Shown here: piece after piece, positions 4,977 through 49,044 of the stretch
Numbering within the stretch: position 1 is the stretch's first letter
How the letters are laid out: each line of letters starts with the position of its first letter
Source of the DNA: an uncultured Acidimicrobiaceae bacterium
GTDB taxonomy: Bacteria; Actinomycetota; Acidimicrobiia; Spongiisociales; UBA5794
DNA: 57,387 bases
Assembly: GCA_964505525.1 (NCBI GenBank)
Contig: CAZDIQ010000002.1
Location: 1-57,387 of the forward strand
Direction of reading: 5' to 3'
Translations under genes and position numbers: made by a program
The notes under the pieces: model-generated
Told to the model about the DNA's origin: nothing
Seen by the model: only the letters and a program-made list of their open reading frames with translations
Database searches by the model: none

Positions 4977-6626
4977 ATGGCACGACGATTCAAGCTCTTT
5001 GTATTGGTCGCACTGGTCCTTGTAGTCGCGCTCGGATTCGTTCCGACGATCGCACCCACCCCCGCCTCGGCGAGGCCGGGTCCGTGGAGTCCGACACCGG
5101 GCACGACATGGCAATGGCAGCTCACCGGACGGATCGACACATCGGTCGACGTGGATGTCTACAACGTCGACCTGTTCGACACGTCGGAGTCCGTTGTGCG
5201 GACCCTGCACAACGACGGCAAGAGGGTCATCTGCTACATGAGCGCCGGGTCGTACGAGAACTGGCGTGACGATGCGAAGTCGTTCCCATCGTCGGTGTTG
5301 GGGAACTCCAACGGGTGGTCGGGCGAGCGGTGGCTCGACATCCGCCGAATCGACATCCTCGGACCCATCATGGAAGCCCGCATGGATCTGTGTGCCAAGA
5401 AGGGATTCGATGCCGTCGAGGTCGACAATATCGACGGGTACGCGAACAGAGGCACAGGGTTTCCGTTGACCGGTGCGGACCAGCTCGCCTACAACCGCTT
5501 TCTTGCCAAGGCTGCCCATGCCCGCGGGCTGTCGATCGGTATGAAGAACAACCTCGACCAGGTGAGGGCCCTCGTCAACGACTACGACTTCGCCATCAAC
5601 GAGGAATGCGCTGAGTGGAACGAATGCCGCTTGCTGAAGCCATTCATCGACGCAGGTAAGGCCGTGTTCCATGCCGAGTACAAGCTCACCCTCGGTCAGT
5701 TCTGCGAGCAGAGCAAGGCTCTCGGGTTGTCGTCCATAAGGAAGAAGCTCAACCTCGACGCATGGGTCGAGCGGTGCGACACAAGCGCACGGCCACCGGC
5801 TCCTCCTGTAGCCCCGAGGCCACCGGCTCCGGCCCCACCGCCACCGCCACCAGGCCCACCGACCCAGCCGACTCCTCCACCACCGCCCCCGAAGTATGTC
5901 GGGGTGTCCGGTGGGGATTCGCCCGGTCTGGTTGATCCAACCTCTGGCCGGTGGTGGATCACCGACGTCGAGAATGACTCGAAGTCGTTCTACTTCGGGA
6001 ATCCCGGTGACGTCCCGTTCATGGGCGACTGGGATTGTGACGGCATCGACACGCCAGGGTTGTATCGCCAGTCCGATGGCTATGTGTACCTCAGAAACTC
6101 GAACACACAGGGGATCGCCGACATCAGTTTCTACTTCGGCAACCCGGGTGACATCCCACTTGCTGGTGACTTCGATGGGGACAACTGTGACACCGTTGGG
6201 TTGTATCGCCCATCCGAGGGTCGGTTCTTCGTGATCAACCAGCTCGGCAAGGGCGACGCCGGTCTCGGGAAGGCCTCGCAGGACTACCTGTTCGGGAATC
6301 CCGGCGATGTGCCGTTCGCTGGTGACTTCGATGGTGACGGAATCGACACGTTCGGTTTGTATCGCACATCGACGGGTCTTGTGTACATGCGCAACGCCCA
6401 CAGCCAGGGCACGGCGGATGTGTCGTTCATCTACGGCAACCCGAGAGATCGGTTTGTCACGGGTGATTGGAATGCTGACGGTCGTGACTCACCCGGTGTG
6501 TTCCGGCCATCGACAAGCAAGCTCTACATCCGTTATCACAACTCCGCGGGGACAGCCGATGCCGTGTTGGATGCATGGTCATCGAACCTGATCCCCGTGG
6601 CGGGCCACTACGGCAACCTCCCCTGA
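4977..6626 (+). CDS. Secreted GH114-like endo-alpha-1,4-polygalactosaminidase with a Pro-rich linker and the same C-terminal FG-GAP/VCBS-like repeat module
   Basis: Signal peptide (MARRFKLFVLVALVLVVALGF...ASA). The catalytic region (TWQWQLTG...VICYMSAGSYENWRDD...GERWLDIR...GFDAVEVDNIDGY...GMKNN) fits the glycosyl hydrolase 114 pattern. A poly-Pro linker follows (PPAPPVAPRPPAPAPPPPPPGPPTQPTPPPPPP). RBS GGAGGGAGAG lies upstream of the ATG. Confidence 0.8.
   Translation: MARRFKLFVLVALVLVVALGFVPTIAPTPASARPGPWSPTPGTTWQWQLTGRIDTSVDVDVYNVDLFDTSESVVRTLHNDGKRVICYMSAGSYENWRDDAKSFPSSVLGNSNGWSGERWLDIRRIDILGPIMEARMDLCAKKGFDAVEVDNIDGYANRGTGFPLTGADQLAYNRFLAKAAHARGLSIGMKNNLDQVRALVNDYDFAINEECAEWNECRLLKPFIDAGKAVFHAEYKLTLGQFCEQSKALGLSSIRKKLNLDAWVERCDTSARPPAPPVAPRPPAPAPPPPPPGPPTQPTPPPPPPKYVGVSGGDSPGLVDPTSGRWWITDVENDSKSFYFGNPGDVPFMGDWDCDGIDTPGLYRQSDGYVYLRNSNTQGIADISFYFGNPGDIPLAGDFDGDNCDTVGLYRPSEGRFFVINQLGKGDAGLGKASQDYLFGNPGDVPFAGDFDGDGIDTFGLYRTSTGLVYMRNAHSQGTADVSFIYGNPRDRFVTGDWNADGRDSPGVFRPSTSKLYIRYHNSAGTADAVLDAWSSNLIPVAGHYGNLP
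5892..6626 (+). repeat. Copy B of the duplicated C-terminal module (see 4055..4790)
   Basis: Same repeat architecture and near-identical nucleotide sequence as copy A. Confidence 0.85.
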
Positions 6627-7188: not shown

Positions 7189-8753
7189 GCTTCGAAGACG
7201 ACTCGCCCTCCGATGAGCGTGGTCTCCGTGCGTACCGACGCGAGGTCCTCGGCGGAGAGTGGGTTGTCCGATGCGACCACGAAGTCAGCGTCCTTCCCGA
7301 CTTCGATGGTCCCCGCCCGTTGCTCATCGTGGTTGATCCATGCCGAACCCGATGTGAATGCCGCGAGCGCCTCCTCGCGGGTCAGCGCCTGTTGCGGGAG
7401 GAGTGGCTCGGGAGCTTGCGCTGTCGACCGGGTGACGGCGACGGCCATCTGGGCGAAGGCGTCCGCCGTCGATACCGACCAGTCCGACCCTGCACCCATG
7501 TGGGCGCCGGCGTCGAGCAGGGAGCGGAACGGGTACTGCCACGTCGAGCGTTCAGCCCCGAGACGCGGGATGGTCAGATCGATCATCGTGTCGTCGTGGC
7601 ACGCCCACAGCGCCTGGGCGTTCGCGGCCACCCCGATCGAGGCGAACCTCGGGATGTCGATCGGGTCGATGACATGGATGTGCGCGATGTGAGGGCGGAC
7701 CCGCCTGACATGGTCCGGATCGCCAGCTTCGACGGCATCGAGTGCAGTTCGGATTGCTCGGTCACCAATGGCGTGGAAGTGCGGTTGGATTCCCGCAGCC
7801 ATGATCTTCGGGACGATCGAGCGAAGGAGATCTTCCCCGAGGAAAGCGATGCCGCGGTCGTCGGTCGATCCTTCGTATGGCATCCCGAGGGCGCCGGTGC
7901 CGTTCTCGATCACACCGTCGACCATGAGCTTGATGCCCGTCGGCTCGTAGCGGGTCGTCGCCTCCTTGGTCATCTCCAACAGGTCGTCGAGTTGTTCCTC
8001 GCCGCGTTCCCTGTCCCACCACAACGAACCGAGCACTCGTGCGAGAAGGCGACCGTCGTTGTCGAGGGTGCGATATGCCCCATGGTCGATCGGTCGCACC
8101 CATGCGTCGTTCCAACCGGTGATCCCGAGGGAAAGCAGGTAGTCCTGACCGGCGAGGATGCCTCGGAGCGCTTCATCGGCCGTGTCCTCGGGAGCAAATC
8201 GTTCGACGAGGTCGATGGCTCCCTCCTGGAGCGTGCCGTTCGGGGTGCCGTCGGCGTCGCGTTCTATGCGTCCGTGCGTGGGATCGGGCGTAGAGCTGTC
8301 GACCCCGGCGATCTCAAGAGCACGTGAGTTGACCCACGCGGCATGCCCCTCGCTCGACAGCAGGAACACGGGACGGTCGGGGACGATCGCGTCAAGAATC
8401 GAACGGTGCGCAATGCCACCGTCGAACGCATTCATGGGCCAGCCACCGCCGAGGATCCATGGTGCGTCGGTGTTGCTCCGAGCATACGAAGCAATCGTGT
8501 CCACGTACGCCTCAGGATCGACTTCGTGGAGATCGCACCTGATGAGGGCGAGGCCACCCATCGGTGGGTGGACATGGGAGTCCTGGAATCCTGGCAACAG
8601 ACATCGGCCGTCGAGGTCGAACGTTTCACCGTCAGGCGCTGGACCCGCACCGACGTCGGTGATACGTGATCCCTCGACCACCACCCAGTCAGGCATCGAT
8701 CCGGTTCCCGTCCAGATCGACCCGTTGACGAACACAGTGCGGTGATGCGTCAC
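7185..8753 (-). CDS. Metal-dependent amidohydrolase (amidohydrolase-3 / YtcJ-like)
   Basis: Sequence shows LPGFQDSHVHP (HxH metal motif) and HAIGDRA, with typical length. I chose the GTG at 8753 because it forms a GTGA overlap with the stop of the upstream cyclase gene. The ORF is open up to 8840, so a longer version is possible. Confidence 0.8.
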   Translation of the reverse strand: MTHHRTVFVNGSIWTGTGSMPDWVVVEGSRITDVGAGPAPDGETFDLDGRCLLPGFQDSHVHPPMGGLALIRCDLHEVDPEAYVDTIASYARSNTDAPWILGGGWPMNAFDGGIAHRSILDAIVPDRPVFLLSSEGHAAWVNSRALEIAGVDSSTPDPTHGRIERDADGTPNGTLQEGAIDLVERFAPEDTADEALRGILAGQDYLLSLGITGWNDAWVRPIDHGAYRTLDNDGRLLARVLGSLWWDRERGEEQLDDLLEMTKEATTRYEPTGIKLMVDGVIENGTGALGMPYEGSTDDRGIAFLGEDLLRSIVPKIMAAGIQPHFHAIGDRAIRTALDAVEAGDPDHVRRVRPHIAHIHVIDPIDIPRFASIGVAANAQALWACHDDTMIDLTIPRLGAERSTWQYPFRSLLDAGAHMGAGSDWSVSTADAFAQMAVAVTRSTAQAPEPLLPQQALTREEALAAFTSGSAWINHDEQRAGTIEVGKDADFVVASDNPLSAEDLASVRTETTLIGGRVVFEA

Positions 8754-10549
8754 GACGGCGCGACCAGTTCGACCTTGCGAAGGTCGTCCTTCCATCGGTT
8801 GCGGATGGCGTCGTCCTTGTACGGATTCCCGTCGATCCACGCCTCGGCATCGAGTGTCGGGAAAGTTTCCCGGATCCGATCAGCAGTCGCCAGCGCCCGC
8901 CGATCCATGCCGAGTTCCACTTGACTTGCCGCAAGCACCAGCATGGCCTCCACATTGGTCGGCTGGTGCTCAAGGACGGCCTCGGCGATGGCTGCTGCTT
9001 GCTCGACCCGTTCGCCGATGAACAGCGAGCACGCCTTGATCGTCGGGTACCACGGATTGCTCACAACGGAGAGGCGCATTGCCACATCCAGCAGATCCAC
9101 TGCCTCTTCCCAATCCCCGAGATACCGTCTCAGACTGCCCTCAAGTGCGTAGGTGACATCGCATGTGGGGCGCACGATGTTGATGCCGTCGATCCGTGCG
9201 GCCGCTTCATCGGTGTGTCCGAGCGATAGGAGCACGGCAGCATCGACGGCTGTTGCGAGACCGGTGGGATCCCCCATTTCCGATGCGATTCGCGCTTGGT
9301 CACGTGCCAGGGCAAGGACTTCGTCGCGGTTGGTCACGAATCCGTCCTCAACGCCCATCCAGTTCGTGAACGCTGATAACACCAAACCGGTCGGCAGCTC
9401 CGGATGCTGGTCGGCGACTCGTTGGAAGAGCCGGTACGCCTCTTCCCACCCCTGTCGTGTGTTCAGCTTCAAGTGGTACCAGCCGAGGTAGACATCGTGG
9501 ATCGACTCTGCATCGCCCAATTCCGCGTAGATGCCCGCTGGCGCTCCGACTATGAGCTCGACCGCCACGGTGTTGGCGACGGCCTCCGCCAGCCGGTCGG
9601 ACAGTGTGAGAAGGTCAGACGCCTTCGACGTCTCCCTGTGGGACTTGACCACGTTCATGGTCGTGAGGTCGAGCAGGTTGGCATAGACGCGCACGTCGTC
9701 CCCGAATTGGAGCACACCGGTTTCGAGTACGTAGCGCGATGGCGCCTTGTCGCGGTAGTCCGATCCGAGTGCCTCGACCATGTCGACACCGGGCACAGCC
9801 GTGAGGCGATGGACGATGTCGGACCTGATGACACCCGCCGCGGATCCGACCTCGGGGCTTGCTCCCTCGATGATTACGGGCAGGACCGCAACCGACGGTC
9901 TGTCGAGCCCGAGGAACGTGTGGCCTGGGACAGCCGCCGCGTCGCTCGGGAGCCCGACGAAGTCATAGACAGGGACCGGCTCGGGAATGTTCTTGAGTCG
10001 GTGTGTACCCATGGTGCGGAATCGAAGCTCCGGTTCGTCCAATGCCCGATACACAGCACCCGACACCGCCAGACCGCCGGGTTGGCACAGGGCTTGGATG
10101 CGGGCAGCGATGTTGAGGACATCTCCTTCATAGTGACCGTCGGTGATCGACACGTACCCTTGGTCGATGCCCAAGCGGAACCTGAGCCACTTGGGTTCGG
10201 GGCGACCGGCGTTGCTGGCTTCGACGGCAGTCGTAATGGCAATGGCGGCTTGGACACTTTCGACCGCGGTCGGCAGCACAGCCATGAAATTGTCACCGAC
10301 AAAGTTGACAAGCGTTCCACCGACCTCGGTGAGGTTGTCCTCCACGATCGTCCTTGCAGAGACCATGGCCTCTGAGGTCGCGTCAAAGTCGTCGGCCAGG
10401 AGGCGTGAGTAGCCGACCACATCGCCATTGATCGCAGCGACGAATACTGCACGATTGCGGGTACTGATCATCGACGCCATCGTAGTCGTGACCCCTATCC
10501 CATCCGATGGCTGTCCGGTCTCACCGTCGCGAGCGAGTCCCATCCGCAT
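8750..10549 (-). CDS. Class III adenylate/guanylate cyclase domain protein with C-terminal TPR-like helical repeats
   Basis: The N-terminal cyclase homology domain carries GDVVGYSRLL, NFVGDNFMAV and LNIAARIQ. A ~350-aa alpha-helical repeat region follows. ATG 10480 is an alternative start. Confidence 0.8.
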   Translation of the reverse strand: MRMGLARDGETGQPSDGIGVTTTMASMISTRNRAVFVAAINGDVVGYSRLLADDFDATSEAMVSARTIVEDNLTEVGGTLVNFVGDNFMAVLPTAVESVQAAIAITTAVEASNAGRPEPKWLRFRLGIDQGYVSITDGHYEGDVLNIAARIQALCQPGGLAVSGAVYRALDEPELRFRTMGTHRLKNIPEPVPVYDFVGLPSDAAAVPGHTFLGLDRPSVAVLPVIIEGASPEVGSAAGVIRSDIVHRLTAVPGVDMVEALGSDYRDKAPSRYVLETGVLQFGDDVRVYANLLDLTTMNVVKSHRETSKASDLLTLSDRLAEAVANTVAVELIVGAPAGIYAELGDAESIHDVYLGWYHLKLNTRQGWEEAYRLFQRVADQHPELPTGLVLSAFTNWMGVEDGFVTNRDEVLALARDQARIASEMGDPTGLATAVDAAVLLSLGHTDEAAARIDGINIVRPTCDVTYALEGSLRRYLGDWEEAVDLLDVAMRLSVVSNPWYPTIKACSLFIGERVEQAAAIAEAVLEHQPTNVEAMLVLAASQVELGMDRRALATADRIRETFPTLDAEAWIDGNPYKDDAIRNRWKDDLRKVELVAPS

Positions 10550-17142: not shown

Positions 17143-17329
17143 GCCCTATCTCCTTCCGTGCCTTGCTGGTGAGACGTCGCGGATGAATCGATCCCGGGGT
17201 GGCGACAATGCGGATGCATAGTCCGGTGGCACGAGAATCGGTCCGATTCGGCCAGCATCGTTTGGGGGCATTGCTTCGTCTTGCATCTGATACAGACTCG
17301 ACTGTACATCGCGCATAGAAGAAGAGCTA

Positions 17330-17343
17330 TTCTTGATTCGAAA
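17330..17343. promoter_or_regulatory. Candidate operator (TTCT-N5-CGAAA) in the divergent region between 17142(-) and 17374(+)
   Basis: TTCTTGATTCGAAA lies 31 nt upstream of the ATG at 17374. Confidence 0.4.
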
Positions 17344-17373
17344 CAACCGTCTGAAAGGATTCGACACCCGACC

Positions 17374-19479
17374 ATGCGCGAAGCTCGACACGATGTTCTG
17401 TTCGAGCCGATTCAGATCGGTTCGAAGGTGCTCCGCAACAGGTTCTACTCGACGCCGCATGCGTCGTTCGTCGTCGGTCGTCGGATGTCCGACGTCGCGT
17501 TTCGTCGGATGAAAGCCGAGGGTGGTTTCGCCGTTGTCTGCGGTGGTGTCACCTCCATACGACAGGATGCTTGGGGTGGGTTGGTTCCTCGCATTTGGGA
17601 CGAGGACGAACGGGCCATGCTCGGGCGAATGGCCGCCGAGGTGTCGGGCCAAGGCGCGATGGCGGGCATCGAGTTCGGCCACGGCGGAGTGAGCAGCATG
17701 GGTTCCAAGTTCTCCCCGAGCATCGGACCTTCACAGCTCGCGAGCCCTGACCACCCGCAACTCGTGCCCATGGCCATGGATCTGGACGACATTCGTCAGA
17801 TCCAAAGCGATTGGATCGATGCTGCATCAACCGCTGCCGATCTCGGGTTCGAAATCATCTACTCCTATGGGAGTCACGGAACCTTGCCAGCGCAGTTCCT
17901 TTCGCCATTCCTCAACAGGCGGACTGATCAGTACGGGGGCTCGATCGAGAATCGAGCCCGCTTCTGGCTGGAGTTGACCGACGGCATCAGGAATGCGGTC
18001 GGTGACAGGGCCCTGGTGGCCGCCCGGATCGCCGCCGAGTCCTTCAACGAGCAAGGAGTCTCGTTCGATGATTCGATGGCGTTCGTGCGTATGGCGGACG
18101 ACCTTGTGGACTTGTGGGATGTCAACCTTGGGTTCGGATGGAGTCCCGACTCCTCGCCGTCGAGGCTGACGGATGAGGGATCACAACTCGAGTGGACGGG
18201 TCGGCTTCGCGAGTACACGGCCAAACCCATCGTGGGTGTCAGTCGACTCACAAGTCCGGATCGAATGGCCGAGATCGTCAGGTCCGGGGTCTGGGACTTG
18301 ATTGGAGCTGCTCGCCCGGGAATCGCTGATCCGTTCCTACCGAAGAAGATCGAGGAAGGTCGCTACGACGACATTCGTGAATGCACGGGAACAAACTTCT
18401 GCATCGCTGTGGAAACGACGGGAATCGGCCTCGGGTGTGTGCAAAACGCGACGATCGGCGAAGAGTATCGCCGTGGCTGGCATCCAGAGCGGTTCAGTCA
18501 GACGGCGCGTGGCGAAGACGCTGTACTGATTGTTGGTGGCGGGCCAGCTGGGTTGGAGACCGCTAGGGTCTTGGGTGAGCGCGGCTTCGGGTTCGTTCAC
18601 ATAGTGGAAGCCAGACCCGATGTCGGTGGTCATCTCGCTTTGCTCCGACGGTTGCCAAGGCTTGGCGACTGGGGGCGCGTCATCGACTATCGCAAGAGCC
18701 AGTTGGCCAAGCTCGACAATGTTGCAGTCGTCACGGGGAAGCGACTCAGCGCCGACGATATTCTCGACTATGGGGCATCCGTCGTAGTCGTCGCGACCGG
18801 TGCTCGGTGGCTTGATGTGGCTGATCCGTGGCACGATATCGACCCGGTTCGCCATAGCTCAACAGCGATCAGGATCATCGGACCCGACGAAGTGATGTCA
18901 GGCGTGGGACATCCGGATGGCACGGTGCTGGTCTGGGATGCCGAAGGTGGCCCGGTCGGAATCGGCATCGCCGAGACGCTCGCCCGCGGAGGAAACGGTG
19001 TACTCCTTGCGACCCCATTCGACCGCGTATCGCCACTTCTCGACGCCACGTTCGAGGGCGGGGGCGCTCGCCGTGTATTGCGCGAAACCGGTGTGGAAAT
19101 CCTCGTGGGCGTTGAACTCCACTCTGTGGTCGGCGACACGGTTTCTTTGGTTGATGGCTCAGGTGTGCTCCACGAGGTACGTCCCGAAACGGTCGTGCCA
19201 GTGACGCAGCGTGTTTCCGAGGACAGTCTGTTCCACGAACTTCGGGAGAGACCGTCGGATCTGACCCTCGCTGGGATTTCGGACCTATTGCGGGTCGGAG
19301 ACTGCGTGGCACCCCGCCACTTCGGCCTTGCCATCGCAGACGGTCACAGGCTCGGCCGCGAACTGGATAGTGGTCGTCCTGCCGTCCCTATGGACCCGAT
19401 TGTCGAACGCGATCATCACGGCCCCACCGCCGATTTCACATGGAGGGACGAGACCGTGCTGACCGTTTCGGCCCCATGA
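17374..19479 (+). CDS. Trimethylamine/histamine dehydrogenase-family flavoprotein (OYE-like FMN domain fused to an FAD/NAD(P)-binding domain)
   Basis: Sequence shows HDVLFEPIQIGSKVLRNRFY, RTDQYGGSIENRARFWLE, ADPFLPKKIEEGRYDDIREC, QNATIGEEYRRGWHPE and a dinucleotide fold VLIVGGGPAGLE. I moved the start to ATG 17374 (MREARHD); the long ORF begins at 17281. Confidence 0.85.
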   Translation: MREARHDVLFEPIQIGSKVLRNRFYSTPHASFVVGRRMSDVAFRRMKAEGGFAVVCGGVTSIRQDAWGGLVPRIWDEDERAMLGRMAAEVSGQGAMAGIEFGHGGVSSMGSKFSPSIGPSQLASPDHPQLVPMAMDLDDIRQIQSDWIDAASTAADLGFEIIYSYGSHGTLPAQFLSPFLNRRTDQYGGSIENRARFWLELTDGIRNAVGDRALVAARIAAESFNEQGVSFDDSMAFVRMADDLVDLWDVNLGFGWSPDSSPSRLTDEGSQLEWTGRLREYTAKPIVGVSRLTSPDRMAEIVRSGVWDLIGAARPGIADPFLPKKIEEGRYDDIRECTGTNFCIAVETTGIGLGCVQNATIGEEYRRGWHPERFSQTARGEDAVLIVGGGPAGLETARVLGERGFGFVHIVEARPDVGGHLALLRRLPRLGDWGRVIDYRKSQLAKLDNVAVVTGKRLSADDILDYGASVVVVATGARWLDVADPWHDIDPVRHSSTAIRIIGPDEVMSGVGHPDGTVLVWDAEGGPVGIGIAETLARGGNGVLLATPFDRVSPLLDATFEGGGARRVLRETGVEILVGVELHSVVGDTVSLVDGSGVLHEVRPETVVPVTQRVSEDSLFHELRERPSDLTLAGISDLLRVGDCVAPRHFGLAIADGHRLGRELDSGRPAVPMDPIVERDHHGPTADFTWRDETVLTVSAP

Positions 19480-19531: not shown

Positions 19532-20653
19532 GTGAGCACGATTGAACTTGTCGAGGCCAGGTCCGTGATGGTGCCGCTTGAGCGTACGACATCCTTCTCC
19601 TCCAGGACCGTGGATCACAGATGGTATATGTTGGTGCGGATCCGGGACACCGATGGTGTGGTCGGGACGGGGTTCTGCTACGCGGGCAGCGACGGCGGGA
19701 CGATTCCAGCCATTGCGGTCCGGGACCTTTTCAATGTCGTCCTCATGGGTGCGGATTCGACGAGGACCACCGGCCTGTGGGACCAGATGTACAACCTGGC
19801 TCTTCTCCACGGGCGGGCGGGGTCTGTCATGCGGGCGATCAGCGCCGTCGATATCGCCCTGTGGGATCTCAACTCTCGTCGTGCTCAGCTTCCGCTTTGG
19901 CAATACCTCGGGGCTCATTCATCGGAGTCCGTGCCCGCTTACGCCAGTGGGGGCTACTACTTGGAGGACAAGGGCCTCGACGGCCTAGCCGACGAGATCG
20001 AGTCGTACGTTGCAAGCGGTTATGGGGCCGTGAAGATCAAGGTCGGCAGGGTGACACCGAGTGAGGATGCTGCACGGATTGCCGTCGCCCGGGAGGTTCT
20101 CGGGCCGGATCGAATCCTGATGCTCGATGCCAACAACGCGTGGGCCGACGTCCCCACCGCACTGCGGGCCCTGAGGATGTGGGAGGAGTTCGACCCCTAC
20201 TGGATCGAGGAGCCATTCTCTCCCGATGACATCGCGAGTCACGCCACCCTTTCAAAGCAGACACCCATCACCGTTGCGACTGGGGAAATAGAGGCTGGGC
20301 GGTGGCGCCATCTTGAGCTGTTGACCAAGTCCGCTGTCGCGATTCTTCAGAGCGATGCTGCTGTATGTGGAGGAGTGACGGAGTTCCTGCGCATAGCGCA
20401 CTTGGCCGACGCGTTCGGTGTGCCGATGGCCCCACATTGGTTTCACGATCTCCACTCCCACCTTGTCGCGGCGATCGCCAATGGCATGTGGGTCGAGGTG
20501 TTCCCTGATGCCCGGGTCCTCAATTTCCGCATGCTTATCGACACGCAGTCTGAGATTCAGGACGGACGGATCCTGCTTCCTGATCGCCCAGGTCTCGGCT
20601 TCGGTCTGATCGAGTCACAGGTCGACGCGTTTGCAGTTGAGCCCTGGGCATGA
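19532..20653 (+). CDS. Enolase-superfamily enzyme (mandelate racemase/muconate lactonizing type), probable sugar-acid dehydratase
   Basis: KxK motif (VKIKVG) and metal-ligand positions (MLDAN, WIEEP, ATGE) are present. GTG start with RBS GGGAGGA. Confidence 0.88.
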   Translation: MSTIELVEARSVMVPLERTTSFSSRTVDHRWYMLVRIRDTDGVVGTGFCYAGSDGGTIPAIAVRDLFNVVLMGADSTRTTGLWDQMYNLALLHGRAGSVMRAISAVDIALWDLNSRRAQLPLWQYLGAHSSESVPAYASGGYYLEDKGLDGLADEIESYVASGYGAVKIKVGRVTPSEDAARIAVAREVLGPDRILMLDANNAWADVPTALRALRMWEEFDPYWIEEPFSPDDIASHATLSKQTPITVATGEIEAGRWRHLELLTKSAVAILQSDAAVCGGVTEFLRIAHLADAFGVPMAPHWFHDLHSHLVAAIANGMWVEVFPDARVLNFRMLIDTQSEIQDGRILLPDRPGLGFGLIESQVDAFAVEPWA

Positions 20654-21513
20654 GGTTTGCGACGCTCGCTCTCAACGATGGACGTGAGCAGGTCGCAATC
20701 GGCCTCGAGGGTCGATGGATTCCGCTCGATCATGTAGACGAGTCTCTCGACGGGGACATGTTGTGCCTGATCAACCGTGAGTTCGACCGAGAGCAACTCG
20801 ATGATCTCGGACGACGCGCACAGTCGATGGCCAGCTCTCGGTGGATCCTTGGGGCCAACGCGGAGTTCGCCCCTCCGTACAGGCGCCCGCGGTTGATTTG
20901 GGGGATCGGTTTGAATTATGCGGAACATGCGAGCGATCTGTCCGAGAAGCAGCCCCAAGACCCAGCGAGTTTCGTCAAGGGTGACCACACGGTCATTGGT
21001 CATCATGACGAGATCATGCTTCCGCCCCAGAGTGCCCGGGTCACAACCGAGGCGGAGATCGGACTGATCATCGGTCGACGAAGTCGTGCGGGAACGGACG
21101 CAGTGACGCTTGAGACGGTGTTCGGTTTCGTCCCGATTCTCGACCAGACGGCAGAGGACATTCTCGAGCAGAATCCGAGGTTCCTGACCAGATCGAAGAA
21201 CTTTGCGACGTTCTTCGCCTTCGGCCCGGAAGTCCTCACATTGGATTCACTCCCTGACGACCTTGGAGCCTTGACGGTATCCACGGTGATCAACGGACAG
21301 GTTGTGCGGAGCAATCGTGTGGACAACATGCTGCATTCCCCATCAGACTTGTTGCGATTCCATACCGACATGATGCCGATGTTCCCTGGGGATATCATCT
21401 CGACCGGCACGCCTGGAGCCGGCGTGATTGTCGATGGCGACACTGCAGCAGCGTCGATTGACGGCTTCGAGTCTCTCACCGTGTCTGTTCGCGGTGCAGA
21501 AGCCCGTCAGTGA
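20650..21513 (+). CDS. Fumarylacetoacetate hydrolase (FAH)-family enzyme (2-keto-3-deoxy-pentonate dehydratase / diketo-acid hydrolase type)
   Basis: Sequence shows GIGLNYAEHA, EAEIGLIIG, SKNFATFFAFGP and PGDIISTGTPGAGV. ATGA overlap with the upstream dehydratase. Confidence 0.88.
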   Translation: MRFATLALNDGREQVAIGLEGRWIPLDHVDESLDGDMLCLINREFDREQLDDLGRRAQSMASSRWILGANAEFAPPYRRPRLIWGIGLNYAEHASDLSEKQPQDPASFVKGDHTVIGHHDEIMLPPQSARVTTEAEIGLIIGRRSRAGTDAVTLETVFGFVPILDQTAEDILEQNPRFLTRSKNFATFFAFGPEVLTLDSLPDDLGALTVSTVINGQVVRSNRVDNMLHSPSDLLRFHTDMMPMFPGDIISTGTPGAGVIVDGDTAAASIDGFESLTVSVRGAEARQ

Positions 21514-22397
21514 GGTCCTATCCCCTGTCCACGTTCGGCCGTCTGCCCGACGCGATGCGCCGTAAAGGGAACTCTGCCTGGGCCGCGGGTATCAGGCGGC
21601 CGTCTGATATCCACTCGTTCCTTGAAGGACCTTTGTTGGTCGGCGAATCCATCCTCGTCGCGGACGTTGCGTGGGGTCGCGTGTTCGCACTGGACTCCGG
21701 GGGCCAGTTCGAGGTGGTTCTCGAATATGACGGTGCACCGAACGGACTTGCGGCTTCAGATGATTCGGTAGTCATCGCAGATGCGCGGCACGGCCTCGTC
21801 TGGACAGCCAAGGATGACGGCGGCGTTGACGGTGCACTTGTCGTCGACCGAAGCCTGACCGAGTGGATGGGCGAGCCATTTCGCGGATTGAATGACCTCA
21901 TCGTTTGGGCTGACGGGTCGATTGTTGCAACCGACCAGGGTGCCTCGGGTTTGCATGATCCGTCAGGCAGAATCGTCCACCTGCATCCGAGCGGAACGGA
22001 GAAGGTGCTCCTCGATCGTCTTCCGAGTCCCAACGGTCTCGCACTTGTCCCCGGGAAATTGGAGCTCCTCGTCGCCCTGACTCGGGACAATTCGATCTGG
22101 AGGGTTCCTTTCACTGACGATCTTCAGCCCTTTCGCGTTGGCCGGTTGGTGCAACTATCAGGAGGAATTGGACCCGACGGCATTGCCATGACCCCCGACG
22201 GTTGGCTGTTCGTTGCCCACTTGGGTCTCGGGGTTGTTTGGCTGTTCGACCCGCTAGGTCGGATGGTCGCTGCTTTCGAAGCACCCGATGGAGTTTCCAC
22301 GTCGAACGTCGTCCATGACCCAAGAGCGGACGTGATCTACGTGACGGAGGCAGATACAGGATCTGTTCTGATCGCGGACGTTCCCAAGCACGCGTGA
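21510..22397 (+). CDS. SMP-30/gluconolactonase/LRE-like beta-propeller protein (probable sugar lactonase)
   Basis: ~295 aa with the typical blades (EGPLLVGESILVADV, NDLIVWADGSIVATD, PNGLAL, GPDGIAMTPDGWLFVAH). GTGA overlap with the upstream gene. Confidence 0.8.
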   Translation: MRSYPLSTFGRLPDAMRRKGNSAWAAGIRRPSDIHSFLEGPLLVGESILVADVAWGRVFALDSGGQFEVVLEYDGAPNGLAASDDSVVIADARHGLVWTAKDDGGVDGALVVDRSLTEWMGEPFRGLNDLIVWADGSIVATDQGASGLHDPSGRIVHLHPSGTEKVLLDRLPSPNGLALVPGKLELLVALTRDNSIWRVPFTDDLQPFRVGRLVQLSGGIGPDGIAMTPDGWLFVAHLGLGVVWLFDPLGRMVAAFEAPDGVSTSNVVHDPRADVIYVTEADTGSVLIADVPKHA

Positions 22398-22463: not shown

Positions 22464-23069
22464 GTGAGCGCCCCCGCTTCTCCCCAAGACATCGCCAAAC
22501 GCGTGTTGACAGCCGAGTCCGATGCCATCACGGCGGCCTGTGGTCGGATAGGGGTGAGTTTCGACCGCACAGTCGAACTGCTCGTCAACGCGGATACCGT
22601 GATTCTGACGGGCCTCGGGAAGTCCGGTCTCGTCGCCGCGAAGATCGCGGCGACTTTTGCCAGCACAGGCACCAGAGCGCACTTCGTCCACGCAACCGAG
22701 GCACTGCACGGAGATGCTGGGAACCTGAGGGGCGGGGACGTTATCGTGTGCCTGTCGCTGTCGGGTACGACCGGAGAGGTTTGCCGATTTGCATCCATCG
22801 CGCGCCGGCGCGCTGTGCCTGTGATAGCCCTGACAGGTGACGGGGCTTCGCCGCTTGCCGAGATGGCAGATTGTGTTCTCGACATCAGCGTTGTTGCGGA
22901 GGCGGATGCTCACAACCTTGCTCCCACGGCGAGCACCACGGTTTCGATTGCAATCGGCGATGCGTTGGCAGTTGCGCTGATGATCGTGCGCGGCACCTCT
23001 CGAGATGAGTTCCACGAAAACCACCAGGGTGGTGCGCTCGGTGAGCGCCTTTCGACTGGAGGTACATGA
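22464..23069 (+). CDS. SIS-domain sugar-phosphate isomerase, KpsF/GutQ-like (arabinose-5-phosphate isomerase type) but lacking CBS domains
   Basis: Sequence shows GLGKSGLVAAKIAATFASTGTRAHFVHATEALHGDAGN and CLSLSGTTGEV. It is only 201 aa, that is, SIS only. Confidence 0.8.
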   Translation: MSAPASPQDIAKRVLTAESDAITAACGRIGVSFDRTVELLVNADTVILTGLGKSGLVAAKIAATFASTGTRAHFVHATEALHGDAGNLRGGDVIVCLSLSGTTGEVCRFASIARRRAVPVIALTGDGASPLAEMADCVLDISVVAEADAHNLAPTASTTVSIAIGDALAVALMIVRGTSRDEFHENHQGGALGERLSTGGT

Positions 23070-23953
23070 ACCGAGTCGTTGTGTTCGGGATTGCGGTGGT
23101 CGACGTGACCGGCTACGCCATTGACCGACCGAATCCCGGTGAAACAGTCGTCGGCACGGGCTATGCGATCGCGCCAGGGGGCAAGGGCCTGAATCAGGCT
23201 GTTGCCGCGGCCCGCGCCGGTGCTAGCGTCGAGTTCGTCGGATCGGTCGGAGATGATTTATTCGGCGAAATGCTGCTTGCCACTATCGACCAAGAGGGCG
23301 TGGGCCGAGAGTCGCTGGTGGTGGTCGATGACGGCCAGACTGGGGTCGGCCTTCCTGTGGTCACTGCCGATGGTGAGAACTCGATTGTCGTCGTGCCCGG
23401 TGCTTCGGGCCAGATCGGCGCGAATCAGTACCGATGGATCGAAACTCACGCGATACCCGGCACTGTGTTCGTCAGCCAACTCGAGCTGCCAGATGATGTG
23501 GTGCTGCCAGCAATCCGGGCAGCCGCAGGCTCCGGCGCAACAGTCATCCTGAACCCGGCGCCTGCACGCGCGATAGAGTCTTTGGTCGGATTCGCCCACG
23601 TGCTTGTCCCGAACGAGGTCGAGGCGTCGGTCCTGACTGGGACCGCAGACGCTCGCGAGGCTGCCGAAAAGCTCGCAACGACCTATCCCGCGTTGGACGT
23701 GGTCGTGACATGTGGGCCTGCGGGCGCTATCTATGTGGCTGATGGCACCGCGGTCCGGGTCAAGGCGGACGAGGTCGACGCTGTCGACACTGTTGGCGCT
23801 GGGGATGTGTTCTGTGGATACCTCGCGTCCGAACTCGCAATGGGGTCGGATCTCGGGGAGGCTGTGGCATCCGCGGTGGGTGCCGCCACATACTCGGTAC
23901 AAAGAACCGGTGCAGCTGAGTCAGCCCCCTTTCGTCATGGACGGCCCGACTGA
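23066..23953 (+). CDS. PfkB-family carbohydrate kinase (ribokinase-like)
   Basis: Sequence shows GGKGLNQAVAAARAG and the C-terminal DTVGAGDVFCG anion-hole/ATP motif. ATGA overlap with the SIS gene. Confidence 0.88.
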   Translation: MNRVVVFGIAVVDVTGYAIDRPNPGETVVGTGYAIAPGGKGLNQAVAAARAGASVEFVGSVGDDLFGEMLLATIDQEGVGRESLVVVDDGQTGVGLPVVTADGENSIVVVPGASGQIGANQYRWIETHAIPGTVFVSQLELPDDVVLPAIRAAAGSGATVILNPAPARAIESLVGFAHVLVPNEVEASVLTGTADAREAAEKLATTYPALDVVVTCGPAGAIYVADGTAVRVKADEVDAVDTVGAGDVFCGYLASELAMGSDLGEAVASAVGAATYSVQRTGAAESAPFRHGRPD

Positions 23954-23985: not shown

Positions 23986-23997
23986 TCGTTATAAGAA
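23984..23997. promoter_or_regulatory. Candidate operator (TTTCG-N5-AGAA)
   Basis: TTTCGTTATAAGAA. A perfect small palindrome GAAAT-TCA-ATTTC follows at 23995..24007. Confidence 0.45.
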
Positions 23998-24024
23998 ATT
24001 CAATTTCGAAATGGAGAAAGATCA

Positions 24025-25122
24025 ATGAAAATTGTCGAAGTCGAAACCTTCATCGTGCAGGCCGAGCTTCCGCGGTTTGTCACGGATGCCTTCAACGAGA
24101 CGGTCACGTGGGGCCTGCCCGGTGTCATCTTGAGGACCGACGAAGGAGTCGAAGGTGTCGGATACACCAGCACGCTTGCCCACGGCGACCACGCCATCAA
24201 GGATGTGATCGACCGCATATATTCGCCGTTGTTGATGGGTGAGAATCCGCTGTTCAATCAGCGGATCTGGGAGCGGCTGTACTGGTCCAGCGCCCATTGG
24301 GTCGGACGCACCGGCATCACACAGATGGCCTTGGCAGCCGTGGACATTGCAGTTTGGGACATCAAAGCAAAGGCCGCCGGTCTTCCTCTCTGGCAGCTGG
24401 TCGGTGGACACAAGGAAGGCAAGGTCCCGTCATACAACACCGATGGCGGCTGGCTCAACTTCCCGCTCGAACGACTCGTTGAAGAGATGTCGGTCCTTGT
24501 AGATGCAGGATGGCGACGCGTCAAGATGAAAGTCGGAAAGGACGACCCACGCGAAGACATCGCGAGGGTCGGCGCGGTCAGGGAAGCCCTCGGGTCTGAG
24601 ATCGAACTCATGATCGATGTCAACCAGCGGTGGGATGTCAGCCGAGCCATCACGTGGGCACCGCGATTCGAAGAGTTCCAGATTGCGTGGCTCGAGGAAC
24701 CGATTGACCCTGACGATGTCGCTGGACACGCGCGTCTCGCCAGGGCAACGAGGATTCCCATTGCCCTCGGCGAACACGTGTACACGCGGACGATGTTCAG
24801 GGACTACATCGAACAAGGTATCGTCGGCTACGTGCAGGCGGACGTGACCCGCCTTGGTGGTGTCACTGAATGGCTCGCAGTCGCTGAGATCGCTCTCGCA
24901 CACCACATCCCTGTGGTGCCGCACCATGCCGACATGATGCGGGTTCATCAACATCTCGGCACCGGCCACGCTGCGTCCCCGATGATCGAGTGCATTCCGT
25001 GGCTACAACACTTGTTCGTCGAACCGGCTGACATCCGCGACGGAACGTTCCATGTCAGCGATACGCCCGGGGCTTCGACGACGTTCGATCCCGACCAATT
25101 CGCCAAGCATCGCGTCGCATGA
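24025..25122 (+). CDS. Enolase-superfamily enzyme (mandelate racemase type), probable sugar-acid dehydratase
   Basis: VKMKVG (KxK), MIDVN, WLEEP and ALGEH metal ligands, plus HIPVVPHH. RBS GGAGAAAG. Confidence 0.88.
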   Translation: MKIVEVETFIVQAELPRFVTDAFNETVTWGLPGVILRTDEGVEGVGYTSTLAHGDHAIKDVIDRIYSPLLMGENPLFNQRIWERLYWSSAHWVGRTGITQMALAAVDIAVWDIKAKAAGLPLWQLVGGHKEGKVPSYNTDGGWLNFPLERLVEEMSVLVDAGWRRVKMKVGKDDPREDIARVGAVREALGSEIELMIDVNQRWDVSRAITWAPRFEEFQIAWLEEPIDPDDVAGHARLARATRIPIALGEHVYTRTMFRDYIEQGIVGYVQADVTRLGGVTEWLAVAEIALAHHIPVVPHHADMMRVHQHLGTGHAASPMIECIPWLQHLFVEPADIRDGTFHVSDTPGASTTFDPDQFAKHRVA

Positions 25123-25150
25123 TCGCACGAGGGAATTGCGTCCGAATCGT

Positions 25151-25179
25151 TTGACACGGTTGCGACCCGCTCGTAACGT
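25151..25179 (+). promoter_or_regulatory. Putative sigma-70-type promoter (TTGACA-N17-TAACGT) for the SBP gene at 25281
   Basis: Exact -35 hexamer, 17-nt spacer and a TAnnnT -10. The candidate operator lies 22 nt downstream. Confidence 0.45.
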
Positions 25180-25200
25180 GTGACGGATGTCCCAAAGGCA

Positions 25201-25214
25201 TTTCGTATAGAGAA
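25201..25214. promoter_or_regulatory. Candidate operator (TTTCG-N5-AGAA)
   Basis: TTTCGTATAGAGAA. The wider context TTTCGTATAGAGAAATAACGAAA also forms an inverted repeat TTTCG...CGAAA. Confidence 0.45.
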
Positions 25215-25280
25215 ATAACGAAAGTTTCAATCAGCCGTGACAGTGAGGACACAGTCCGACCTTCGAGGAGGAGCAACCCA

Positions 25281-26963
25281 ATGAATCGATTCCGCATGCG
25301 ACAGGCGAGGATCGTCGTTCTCGTACTCGTACTGATGCTGGTGGCTGCCGCGTGCAGCAGCAGTTCAGACGACACAACGACAACCACCGCCGACGGCGCG
25401 ACTACGACGACTACATCCGGTGGCGGAGGTGGGGAGACCACGACGACCGTTGATCCAGGTGAAGCCAAACAAGGTGGCACCATCGTGATCGGTGTTCAGG
25501 CCGAGACAGAATGTCTTGATGTGCCGAACTGCAACATCCACGTGGACGCGCGGGCTCAGACAAACCTTGCCTACGGGCAGCTCATGTCGGCCAACAGCGA
25601 AGGAGACTATGTCCCCTACATGCTGGAGTCCGCCGTCCCCAATGACGACGCCACGGTTTGGACGCTGAAGATCCGTGAGGGCATCACCTTCCATGACGGC
25701 ACACCGTTGAACGCCGAGTCGCTCAAGATCAACTTTGATCGTGCAGCGCTGTTCAGCTTGAACTCCGCGTCGTTCGACTACTACGAATCGACCGAGATCC
25801 TGGATGATCTGACGGTCGAGGTGCTTCTCAACAAGCCATACGCTGTGTTCCCGCAGGCACTTGCCGATGGGTTTGGTGCGATCGCCTCGCCAGCTGCGCT
25901 GGAGGCTCAAGGTGACGCCTACGCAAGCAGTCAGGACAACCCACCCGTTGGCACGGGTCCGTACAAGCTTGTCGAGTGGGTACGTGACAGCCACCAGATC
26001 TGGGAGAAGTTCGAGGACTATCAGTTCGACAATCGGGCATTTGCCGACAGGATCGAGTTCCGGATTCTTCCCGACGACGCGGCACGTGCAGCGGCACTCC
26101 GCGCCGGAGACATCGACATCGCAGTGACACTGAGTCCATCAACGATCGTCTCGTTCAGGGATGACCCGAATTACACCGTCAATGAGCTCGACTACGGGGC
26201 GACAGGAATCCTGTTCCAGCTCGAGGAGATCCCGGACATCCGGATCCGTCAGGCGGTAGCAATGGCGATCGACAAGGAGACGATGATCGGACTGGTTTGG
26301 GAAGGAGTCGGGGAAGCGATCGAGACGCCATTCCGGGAGGACAACTTCTGGTACGCCGACGTTGACTATCCGCCATTTGACCCTGCAGGTGCCGCAGCGC
26401 TCGTGGCTGAAGTCGAGGCCGAAACCGGCCAGCCGGTGGTCGTGACCTTGACGCCTCGGATCGACGAGACGAGCATCAACTTCGGCACCGTCGTCGTTGA
26501 ACAGCTCAGGGCTGTTGGTATGGATGCGTCCCTTGACATATCGGTCGACACGAACGACTTTGTGAATCGGTACATCGAGGGTCAGTACGAAATGATGGGT
26601 ACCGGTGTGTTCACGGTTCTCGATCCATGGTTCGAGTACACGAGAAGGTACGAGTCGACCAGTGTGCTCAACGGAACCGGCCTCGGGACCGTGTATCCCG
26701 AGGTCCAAGCTGAGATCGACGAGATGCTTGCCATCGGCGCTGGTTCGGCGGATCCGAATGTACGCAAGGAAGCATACGACCGTGTCCAGGAGCTGCTCGC
26801 TGAGTATGTCATTCAGCTGTTCATCCGCTCGGATGTCTACGGTGTGATTGTCTCGAACGACGTGCTCGGATTTCGAACATTGAAGAATCCAGACGGTTCG
26901 AACGGACTGGGTAACTTCTTCACGGCAATTCTGGCCGACGAACTCTGGCTGGACCAGGGCTAG
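25281..26963 (+). CDS. ABC transporter substrate-binding lipoprotein, family 5 (Opp/Dpp-type; peptide or oligosaccharide binding)
   Basis: Lipobox (LVAAAC) followed by a Ser/Thr/Gly linker. The family-5 SBP core carries GGTIVIGV, ITFHDGTPLNAE and GTGPYKLVEW. Confidence 0.88.
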   Translation: MNRFRMRQARIVVLVLVLMLVAAACSSSSDDTTTTTADGATTTTTSGGGGGETTTTVDPGEAKQGGTIVIGVQAETECLDVPNCNIHVDARAQTNLAYGQLMSANSEGDYVPYMLESAVPNDDATVWTLKIREGITFHDGTPLNAESLKINFDRAALFSLNSASFDYYESTEILDDLTVEVLLNKPYAVFPQALADGFGAIASPAALEAQGDAYASSQDNPPVGTGPYKLVEWVRDSHQIWEKFEDYQFDNRAFADRIEFRILPDDAARAAALRAGDIDIAVTLSPSTIVSFRDDPNYTVNELDYGATGILFQLEEIPDIRIRQAVAMAIDKETMIGLVWEGVGEAIETPFREDNFWYADVDYPPFDPAGAAALVAEVEAETGQPVVVTLTPRIDETSINFGTVVVEQLRAVGMDASLDISVDTNDFVNRYIEGQYEMMGTGVFTVLDPWFEYTRRYESTSVLNGTGLGTVYPEVQAEIDEMLAIGAGSADPNVRKEAYDRVQELLAEYVIQLFIRSDVYGVIVSNDVLGFRTLKNPDGSNGLGNFFTAILADELWLDQG

Positions 26964-45708: not shown

Positions 45709-46176
45709 ATGCCAATGACACATGAGGCGATGGAGCAAGCAATCCGGGGCTACTTTGATGCGTGCAACAGGGGAGACGCCGACGCGATAGCCGCGTTCTT
45801 CACGGATGACGCCGTCCACTATTTTCCACCAGGCATGTACGAGGGCCCGTTCAGAACCGCCACAACAATCGGGGATCGATGGCGGCAGGCAGTCGAGGGT
45901 CTGGGGTCGATGTGGACCATCGACCAACTGATCACCGACGCCGAAACCGGTCGTGCGGTCATTGAGTGGACGCACTTCAAGACAGCAAAAGGGACCGTGC
46001 TCCGCGGTGATGAGTGGTACATCTTCGATCCTGACTCCGGTTTGATCGCGGAGATTCGGGCCTACTACGCGTCCCCACAGGCCGAGAACCTCCAGACACT
46101 CGAGCTCGAAGGGTTCGACTACGCGGGGAGGGGATACACAACCGATCCTCCGTTTACCCGCGAAATCGCCGAATGA
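45709..46176 (+). CDS. SnoaL-like / NTF2-fold protein
   Basis: 155 aa carrying YFDACNRGDADAIAAFFTDDAVHYFP, typical of SnoaL-like polyketide cyclase/NTF2 domains. Confidence 0.7.
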   Translation: MPMTHEAMEQAIRGYFDACNRGDADAIAAFFTDDAVHYFPPGMYEGPFRTATTIGDRWRQAVEGLGSMWTIDQLITDAETGRAVIEWTHFKTAKGTVLRGDEWYIFDPDSGLIAEIRAYYASPQAENLQTLELEGFDYAGRGYTTDPPFTREIAE

Positions 46177-47417
46177 CGCATCCGCTAGGGCTTGTGGACC
46201 AGTCCTCGTGGTTTGCCGGTGGTGGCGGGACGCACAGCCACAGAGCCTCGTCGTGGGATCGGACCGGGGCAAACCGAGACTTCATCAATCTCGACGCTGG
46301 CGACACCGCGGTTCTGCTCGAGGCGGACGGACCTGGGTGTGTCACGCACACATACCTCGCGATGGTCCTTCCCGACATCGCCGACTACAGAAACGCAATT
46401 CTGAGGTGCTATTGGGACGGGTCTGATCGACCGTCGGTGGAGGTTCCGCTGGGCGACTTCTTCGGAGTGACAAACGGGCGCGTGCGCGAGTATCAGAGTC
46501 AGATGACCGCTGTCAATGGCGGCCTTGGTGCCTCGCATGGTCTCAATGCGTACTTTCCCATGCCTTTCTCGTCCGGTGGGCGGATCACGCTCGAAAACCG
46601 TGGTAGCGAAAGACTCGGTGGGGCTCTTGGCAACCTTTGGTACCACATCGACTACGAGTTGTACGACAATCCGATCCCTGAGGACACACATCGGTTCCAT
46701 GCGTCGTATGCCCAGGAGGTTCCGACCACTGTCGTGGGTGCAGAACCGAATGTCACGCTTCATGACGCCGAAAACGGCGACGGAACCGAGAACTATGTCG
46801 CCCTCCAAACCACGGGGGCCGGTCGGATGGTCGGTCTTGTTCTTGGAATCGAGAATCTCCAAGGCACGAGCTGGTACGGCGAAGGTGATGACATGGTCTT
46901 CATCGACGGCGAGTCTTGGCCACCAGCAATCCACGGGACCGGGACCGAGGAGATTTTTGGTGGCGGAGCCTGCCCGAGTTGGGAATATGCCGGACCATAT
47001 ACAGGGTTCCACCTGGTCGAGTCTCCAGAGTATGAAGGCCTCATCGGGATGTACCGGTGGTATGTCCACGACCCGATTCACTTTGCGTCATCACTCAAAT
47101 GGACAATCGAGCACGGCCATGCGAACAACTTTGCGAACAACTACTCATCGGTTGCGTATTGGTATCAGACGCCACGGGGGGTGCTGCCACCGCTTCCCGC
47201 CCCCTCCGAGATGCTCCCGCCACTCGGGGACGGCTACGAGGAGGCGAAGACGTATCTCTTCGCGACAACCGAACGGCTTCGTCGGGCCGTTGGAGAGGGC
47301 GGCCAGCTCATCGACTTTCTTCGAGCTTGTCGGGCCGGAGAACCGTTCTACCGCGGTGACTGGGCGGCCACCATCGAGGCGCTCGATCGCTACCGGTCGG
47401 AGACGAGGTTGGGGTAG
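46173..47417 (+). CDS. DUF2961 / glycoside hydrolase family 172 protein (copy 1 of 3)
   Basis: Sequence shows SSWDRTGANRD, GPGCVTHTY, CYWDGSDRPSVEVPLGDFFG, NAYFPMPF and WYGEGDDMVFIDGESWPPAIHGTGTEEIFGG. No signal peptide. ATGA overlap with the upstream gene. Confidence 0.85.
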   Translation: MTHPLGLVDQSSWFAGGGGTHSHRASSWDRTGANRDFINLDAGDTAVLLEADGPGCVTHTYLAMVLPDIADYRNAILRCYWDGSDRPSVEVPLGDFFGVTNGRVREYQSQMTAVNGGLGASHGLNAYFPMPFSSGGRITLENRGSERLGGALGNLWYHIDYELYDNPIPEDTHRFHASYAQEVPTTVVGAEPNVTLHDAENGDGTENYVALQTTGAGRMVGLVLGIENLQGTSWYGEGDDMVFIDGESWPPAIHGTGTEEIFGGGACPSWEYAGPYTGFHLVESPEYEGLIGMYRWYVHDPIHFASSLKWTIEHGHANNFANNYSSVAYWYQTPRGVLPPLPAPSEMLPPLGDGYEEAKTYLFATTERLRRAVGEGGQLIDFLRACRAGEPFYRGDWAATIEALDRYRSETRLG

Positions 47418-49027: not shown

Positions 49028-49044
49028 CAGGAGGGGTGAGACCC

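Follow-up and report, generated by a model that had tools for sequence, protein, structure and literature searches.

A coupled SIS isomerase and ribokinase-like kinase in an uncultured Acidimicrobiaceae bacterium: a predicted D-arabinose salvage module

In contig CAZDIQ010000002.1 of an uncultured Acidimicrobiaceae bacterium (assembly GCA_964505525.1), a short gene for a KpsF-like sugar-phosphate isomerase runs directly into a gene for a ribokinase-like kinase, which raises the question of which sugar the two enzymes handle. The window analysed here is the stretch of 57,387 nucleotides (nt) from positions 1 to 57,387 of this contig, with a G+C content of 60%. From sequence comparison, we consider it rather probable that the pair forms a translationally coupled D-arabinose salvage module feeding the pentose phosphate pathway via ribulose 5-phosphate. 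The two genes and their junction are as follows.

22464-23069, + strand: SIS-only KpsF/KdsD-type sugar-phosphate isomerase of 201 amino acids, GTG start, Pfam SIS only; predicted D-arabinose-5-phosphate isomerase
23066-23953, + strand: ribokinase-like PfkB kinase of 295 amino acids with an altered sugar pocket, ATG start; predicted D-arabinofuranose 5-kinase
23058-23069, + strand: coupling junction, GGAGG (23058-23062) within the end of the SIS gene, followed by ATGA

The junction and the SIS-only isomerase

Reading the sequence confirmed the two open reading frames and the 4-nt overlap described by the first-pass annotation, which had been made from the letters of the window. In the ATGA, the start codon of the kinase (ATG, 23066-23068) lies over the stop codon of the isomerase (TGA, 23067-23069), and the isomerase gene itself is preceded by GGAAAGG 6 nt 5' of its GTG. 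The order of SIS gene and then kinase gene was found in 13 loci besides that of the window, and because it recurs there, the pairing is not due to chance. Eleven SIS-kinase junctions could be read, and in 9 of them the kinase start overlaps the SIS stop by 1-8 nt. Scans for promoters, terminators and palindromes around the pair gave nothing above chance. An AT-rich gap of 71 nt separates the kinase gene from the dehydratase gene that follows, and a perfect palindrome, GAAATTcAATTTC, is located there at 23995-24007. The window contains one copy of it, and at least one match turned up in 49 of 100 shuffles, which is not above chance.

For the isomerase, the motifs GLGKSG, HATEALHGD and SLSGTTGE were all found as had been claimed, and Pfam assigned the SIS domain alone. 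The NCBIfam kpsF profile TIGR00393 matches with 161.7 bits (cut-off 203.7; E 2.4e-47), and this match is limited to profile positions 3-153 of 268, so the protein has no CBS part, in agreement with the first-pass description. The GutQ and KdsD equivalog models match its SIS part with E of 1e-46 and 8e-44, respectively. The sequence stops after the SIS domain, and it neither has the two CBS domains nor reaches the curated cut-off of the family. Active CBS-less arabinose-5-phosphate isomerases are known, so the missing CBS domains do not count against isomerase activity.

The top solved relatives are all KpsF/KdsD-type SIS proteins, namely 5uqi (E 2.3e-32), 3etn (E 1.1e-26) and 2xhz (E 5.9e-31), and the identity to proteobacterial two-domain KdsD proteins is 50-56%. 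Counted on the 2xhz alignment, K53, H82, E105, E146 and H187 of the isomerase correspond to K59, H88, E111, E152 and H193 of E. coli KdsD, and it turned out that these five catalytic residues are invariant in an alignment of 20 sequences as well as in every kinase-linked partner SIS collected. The SLSGT motif had hinted at a loss of KdsD E111, and this idea was dropped because the 2xhz alignment pairs E111 with the conserved E105. In the tree, the SIS-only and the CBS-bearing proteins fall into separate groups (support 81/94), and the former read HGD[A/S]G where KdsD reads HGDLG and mostly EADP where KdsD reads EACP.

Another possibility for such a protein is a module for Amadori compounds, as in FrlB/FrlD, which the first-pass annotation had left open, or a biosynthetic supply of arabinose 5-phosphate. 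An Opp-type importer adjoins the pair and SIS-only relatives are found in FrlB-like clusters, which would suit such a module. However, FrlB has two GlmS-type SIS domains while a single KpsF-type domain is present here, and the FrlD model PRK09813 gives the kinase 39.9 bits, far below its cut-off of 247, so the Amadori alternative is not supported. As for biosynthesis, the surroundings showed no Kdo or capsule genes, and a supply that starts from ribulose 5-phosphate would not require a kinase. Taken as one explanation, the two are scarcely probable.

Two of the FrlB-like clusters (L001:3224-9765 and L065:3993-9273) consist of a double-SIS gene (FrlB-like), a PfkB gene, a further double-SIS gene, a gene for a protein of 460-530 amino acids and finally a KpsF-like SIS gene, with Opp-type importers adjoining. 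In one of them an arginase gene follows the KpsF-like SIS gene. Clusters of this type may serve the breakdown of pentose-derived Amadori compounds.

The kinase and its pocket signature

The first-pass annotation called the second protein a PfkB kinase with ribokinase-type motifs, and the profiles bear this out. Pfam PfkB matches with 187.8 bits and the best model is the ribokinase profile TIGR02152 (243.4 bits; cut-off 299.65), PRK11142 gives 200 bits (cut-off 341), and neither ribokinase cut-off is reached. The GG (G38-G39), NXXE (N183-E186) and GAGD (G244-A-G-D247) motifs are present, the last with the catalytic Asp.

In alignment with E. coli ribokinase, the kinase keeps D13, G39, K40, N43, E140 and D247, corresponding to D16, G42, K43, N46, E143 and D255 (the catalytic Asp being D247), while V11, G95 and P97 replace N14, A98 and I100. 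Of the full set of ribose contacts and lid residues (A98, I100, I110), therefore, N14, A98 and I100 are changed and the others are retained. In E. coli ribokinase, the 2-OH of D-arabinose clashes with a lid surface made up of A98, I100 and I110, the single engineered change A98G gives a 15-fold higher kcat on D-arabinose, and arabinose receives no hydrogen bond from N14 (PMC9604405).

This three-residue signature is common. Among 207 listed homologs, 151 have the Gly and Pro together with M, V or I at the first position, or with a first position that the pattern could not read, and 39 have the canonical N/A/I combination, while hybrids are rare. The signature-bearing kinases form one clade (support 97/95) with two branches, the subclade of the window (100/100) and a larger one. 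A canonical-type ribokinase paralog exists elsewhere in the genome of the window. As for solved structures, the Thermus ribokinase entries 8cqx and 6znx differ in the aligned region by an Ala-to-Gly change at the equivalent of E. coli A98, and the Gly form is the best solved match of the window kinase.

It would also be conceivable that the kinase acts on another furanose (D-ribose, 2-deoxy-D-ribose, or a lyxo- or xylo-configured or modified pentose released by DUF6259 proteins or an atypical GH172) and that the SIS protein isomerises its phosphate. The divergence of the subclade of the window shows in its long branch and in V taking the place of M at the N14 position, and UniRef labels several clade members as deoxyribokinase. 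Salmonella DeoK, which we take to have Met at the N14 position, points in the same direction, and among the proteins of the window all four of DUF6259 and all but one of the three of GH172 are uncharacterised. On the other hand, aldose-ketose isomerisation is impossible for 2-deoxyribose 5-phosphate, and a coupled isomerase would then have no reason to be conserved if 2-deoxyribose were the substrate, while ribose 5-phosphate requires Rpi rather than a KpsF enzyme. Besides, the O3-binding D13 is invariant, the change to G95 agrees with what favours an arabino 2-OH, and the sister subclade is located in D-arabinan loci. We therefore regard another furanose as an unlikely substrate.

Linkage, surrounding island and predicted route

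Of the loci of signature-clade kinases, 14 were informative, and in 13 of them the SIS-only gene is directly upstream of the kinase gene. The exception is Frankia torreyi, with a transaldolase/FSA-family gene after the kinase and no SIS gene. By comparison, a SIS neighbour was found at none of 63 canonical ribokinase loci in the metagenome sample, and the 22 ribokinase loci inspected in actinobacteria were likewise all without one. The Frankia torreyi kinase (L097:8911-11690) carries the same pocket signature. FSA-type aldolases split arabinose 5-phosphate into glycolaldehyde and glyceraldehyde 3-phosphate, and the transaldolase/FSA gene could be an alternative outlet for arabinose 5-phosphate in this organism.

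Close relatives of the window kinase (51-72% identical) are on four metagenome contigs, and a SIS-only gene adjoins in 4 of 4. Three of the four contigs share the full order of enolase-type dehydratase, FAH, lactonase, SIS, kinase, second dehydratase and Opp-type binding protein, while the fourth is without the FAH and lactonase genes. DUF6259, GH172 and OYE-type flavoprotein genes are also present on some related contigs, and on one contig of the subclade of the window GH172 and DUF6259 adjoin the operon.

In the sister branch, the pair is found in other settings. GH183, GH172 and GH116 were defined by Shimokawa et al. (PMC10509167) as families of endo-, exo-alpha- and exo-beta-D-arabinofuranosidases, respectively. 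The Acidipropionibacterium acidipropionici locus has the order SIS-kinase-GH172-ABC-GH116-LacI, metagenome contig L099 has RbsD-SIS-kinase-GH183-ABC-GH172-GH116, Solicola gregarius has LacI-GH172-GH32-SIS-kinase, and metagenome locus L002 has GH172-LacI-PhyH-SIS-kinase. Further settings of this branch are RbsD alone, a ribose-type ABC importer, and LacI. Around the pair of L002 (7237-12303), three PhyH-type dioxygenase genes and a ketopantoate hydroxymethyltransferase-like gene are seen.

A scan of the genome collection with the SIS protein returned ordinary two-domain KdsD genes of Gram-negatives alone, none of them with an adjoining kinase. A KpsF-type gene was found in 0 of 40 relatives of the genome, so the island that carries the pair is accessory. 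Among 400 genomes of the phylum, 11 have a KpsF-type gene and none has a signature-clade kinase, all strong kinase matches being canonical ribokinases without a SIS neighbour. With these two results, the pair is a rare accessory trait in the sample.

Around the pair, the window encodes the following partners.

19532-22397, + strand: upstream partners (Pfam, NCBIfam), an enolase-superfamily dehydratase, a FAH-family enzyme and a SMP-30/gluconolactonase-type lactonase (oxidative sugar-acid module)
24025-26963, + strand: downstream partners (profile matches, conserved order), a second enolase-superfamily dehydratase and an Opp/Dpp-type substrate-binding protein of an ABC importer
46173-50259, + strand: two GH172 genes flanking an aldehyde dehydrogenase gene (Pfam DUF2961, 233.9 and 237.2 bits)
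52303-53373, + strand: a third GH172 gene, close relative of ExoMA1 (exo-alpha-D-arabinofuranosidase; PDB 8ic8, 527.7 bits, E 1.6e-157, full length)

Four DUF6259 proteins are also encoded in the window. The genome, a 2.59-Mb assembly that is 88.8% complete, has its sole KpsF-type gene, its sole signature-clade kinase and its sole three GH172 genes on this island. A ribulose-phosphate 3-epimerase (Rpe) is present in it, and no FucI-type isomerase was found.

Judging from its match to ExoMA1, the GH172 enzyme of 52303-53373 is the likely source of D-arabinofuranose. Both GH172 proteins of 46173-50259 are nearer to alphaFFase1 than to ExoMA1, and for the first of them the top match among solved structures is 7v1v, which is alphaFFase1 itself. 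This bears on a reading in which the GH172 enzymes are alpha-D-fructofuranosidases acting on difructose anhydrides (DFA) or fructans, with the kinase as a fructokinase and the SIS protein as a hexose-phosphate isomerase, since alphaFFase1 cleaves both alpha-D-Fruf and alpha-D-Araf and since GH172 and GH32 adjoin the pair in Solicola. However, a dedicated isomerase is not required for fructose 6-phosphate, no such pair is part of the B. dentium DFA operon, the kinase scores 243 bits against the ribokinase model and 75.5 against fructokinase models, and the partners GH183 and GH116 are D-arabinan-specific. A fructose module is thus very unlikely.

The sugar-acid genes suggest yet another role, in which the kinase is the 2-keto-3-deoxy-acid kinase of the surrounding pathway and the SIS protein an accessory or regulatory sugar-phosphate binder. 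The position of the pair between a lactonase gene and an enolase-superfamily dehydratase gene, which holds throughout the subclade except on the one contig without a lactonase gene, speaks for it. But the KDG-kinase models match the C-terminal third only, with about 65 bits, the clade retains the ribokinase sugar-binding residues, and it is widespread without any sugar-acid genes, which makes this role highly improbable.

For D-arabinose salvage, the comparisons support the route that the first-pass annotation had proposed (kinase to D-arabinose 5-phosphate, isomerase to ribulose 5-phosphate, supply by GH172) by way of the catalytic residues, the pocket signature, the SIS-tied clade and the linkage to GH172, GH116 and GH183. 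From these features we infer what the pair acts on, what it makes and which way the flux runs. Cytoplasmic GH172 enzymes of the island would trim imported oligosaccharides and free D-arabinofuranose, the kinase would phosphorylate it at O5 to D-arabinose 5-phosphate, and the CBS-less isomerase would convert this to D-ribulose 5-phosphate, which would enter the pentose phosphate pathway. The rare sugar D-arabinose is the hallmark of the cell walls of mycobacteria and corynebacteria, and the D-arabinose that the pair would use is most likely released from bacterial cell-wall fragments. More speculatively, the pyranose fraction might be oxidised in parallel by the lactonase, dehydratase and FAH enzymes encoded on either side of the pair; this is suggested because no RbsD-type pyranase was found in the genome and a furanose-specific kinase cannot use the pyranose.

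Several points weigh against D-arabinose salvage. The GH172 genes are 22-29 kb from the pair, which itself sits inside a sugar-acid operon, and GH183, GH116 and RbsD were not found in the 88.8% complete genome. The oxidative route encoded around the pair could also take D-arabinose, so that a second route looks redundant. In the tree, the kinase subclade of the window has its long branch and V rather than M, so its specificity could differ from that of the subclade in D-arabinan loci. The isomerase clade is not exclusive to D-arabinose loci, because SIS-only relatives 51-56% identical to the window isomerase exist without this kinase in the FrlB-like clusters, and 3fxa, a Listeria KpsF-like single-SIS protein, is presumably a glucose-6-phosphate isomerase. 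The GH172 of Solicola is paired with GH32 as in a fructan operon. Besides, a literature search found no paper characterising an enzyme of either clade and no genes assigned to the route. What chiefly leaves room for doubt is how far the subclade of the window has diverged, together with its sugar-acid context.

A bolder version of the D-arabinose reading, to which we give about an even chance, has three parts. In it, the pair and its several hundred relatives would be the missing genes for D-arabinokinase (Enzyme Commission number, EC, 2.7.1.54) and for the isomerase that goes with it, the three-residue signature would be a natural solution to arabino-specificity, and the subclade of the window would be a variant that wires phosphorylative and oxidative pentose routes into one operon, D-arabinose being split by ring form (furanose phosphorylated, pyranose oxidised).

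Other genes of the island deserve mention. The first gene of the operon (17281-19479) encodes a flavoprotein (OYE/FMN plus FAD/NAD) resembling 2,4-dienoyl-CoA reductase or amine dehydrogenase in type, which recurs beside the cluster on a related contig. A TPR plus cyclase-like protein (8750-10549) has a 55%-identical homolog (L064:4402-6126) in G356, an actinobacterial genome that is not related, where a SIS-only gene lies within a few kb of it, and the protein may be a shared regulator. On the left side of the island, a GH114 gene (4977-6626; endo-alpha-1,4-polygalactosaminidase family) hints that amino-sugar polymers are also targeted.

Comparison with known systems

The two-step route itself is not new. 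D-arabinokinase (EC 2.7.1.54) and phosphoarabinoisomerase (EC 5.3.1.13) were reportedly purified from Propionibacterium pentosaceum around 1960, in work attributed to Volk (about 1959-1962), and to our knowledge no sequence was ever attached to this D-arabinokinase activity. We also know of no demonstration of the fate of the D-arabinose released by D-arabinan-digesting bacteria. EC 2.7.1.54 is among the orphan activities listed in PMC1940265, and Shimokawa et al. 2023 (PMC10509167) proposed a putative isomerase and kinase that take D-arabinose to ribulose 5-phosphate in D-arabinan loci, as a prediction in which neither the text nor the supplements name the families of the two enzymes. The first-pass annotation was thus wrong in holding that the route is not an established one, for the activity is on record and the route has been proposed. 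What is new here is the kinase sequence signature and the divergent subclade embedded in a sugar-acid operon.

If the pair does act on D-arabinose, sequences for EC 2.7.1.54 would close an orphan-enzyme gap, the presence of KdsD-like genes in Gram-positive bacteria free of lipopolysaccharide would be explained, and hundreds of annotations as "ribokinase" or "deoxyribokinase" would be corrected. A natural D-arabinose 5-kinase would also be a ready-made catalyst for the synthesis of arabinoside drugs, whose enzymatic production is limited because E. coli ribokinase works poorly on D-arabinose (KM 470 mM; PMC9604405).

Like the single-domain arabinose-5-phosphate isomerases (5uqi, 3etn) and the SIS domain of KdsD (2xhz), the window isomerase has a CBS-less KpsF-type fold with the five catalytic residues. 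We take 5uqi, along with 5vhu, to be E. coli CFT073 c3406, and 3etn to be the Bacteroides fragilis enzyme. Unlike them, the window isomerase belongs to a separate SIS-only group and is coupled to a kinase, and it is therefore predicted to be catabolic, running from arabinose 5-phosphate to ribulose 5-phosphate.

The two-step chemistry predicted for the pair is that of the P. pentosaceum D-arabinokinase and phosphoarabinoisomerase. In the NCBI taxonomy P. pentosaceum is now A. acidipropionici, and the species under its modern name carries the SIS-kinase-GH172-ABC-GH116 operon. The window proteins differ from those of A. acidipropionici, with 42% identity for the kinase and 50% for the isomerase. 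With the D-arabinan locus of Microbacterium arabinogalactanolyticum (PMC10509167) the window shares an ExoMA1-type GH172, but its genome is without detectable GH183 and GH116, its importer is of the Opp type rather than the sugar type, and DUF6259 proteins as well as a sugar-acid module are present in addition.

The kinase resembles RbsK (EC 2.7.1.15; E. coli 1rkd and 1gqt, V. cholerae 4x8f) in its PfkB fold, in the GG, NXXE and GAGD motifs with the catalytic Asp, and in the ligands D16, G42, K43, N46 and E143, while it differs by N14 to V, A98 to G and I100 to P, by a score below the cut-off and by its separate clade. It shares with the engineered E. coli ribokinase A98G (PMC9604405) a Gly at the lid position facing the arabino 2-OH. 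In contrast to the engineered enzyme, the change in this kinase is natural, is joined by two more pocket changes and is conserved across hundreds of proteins.

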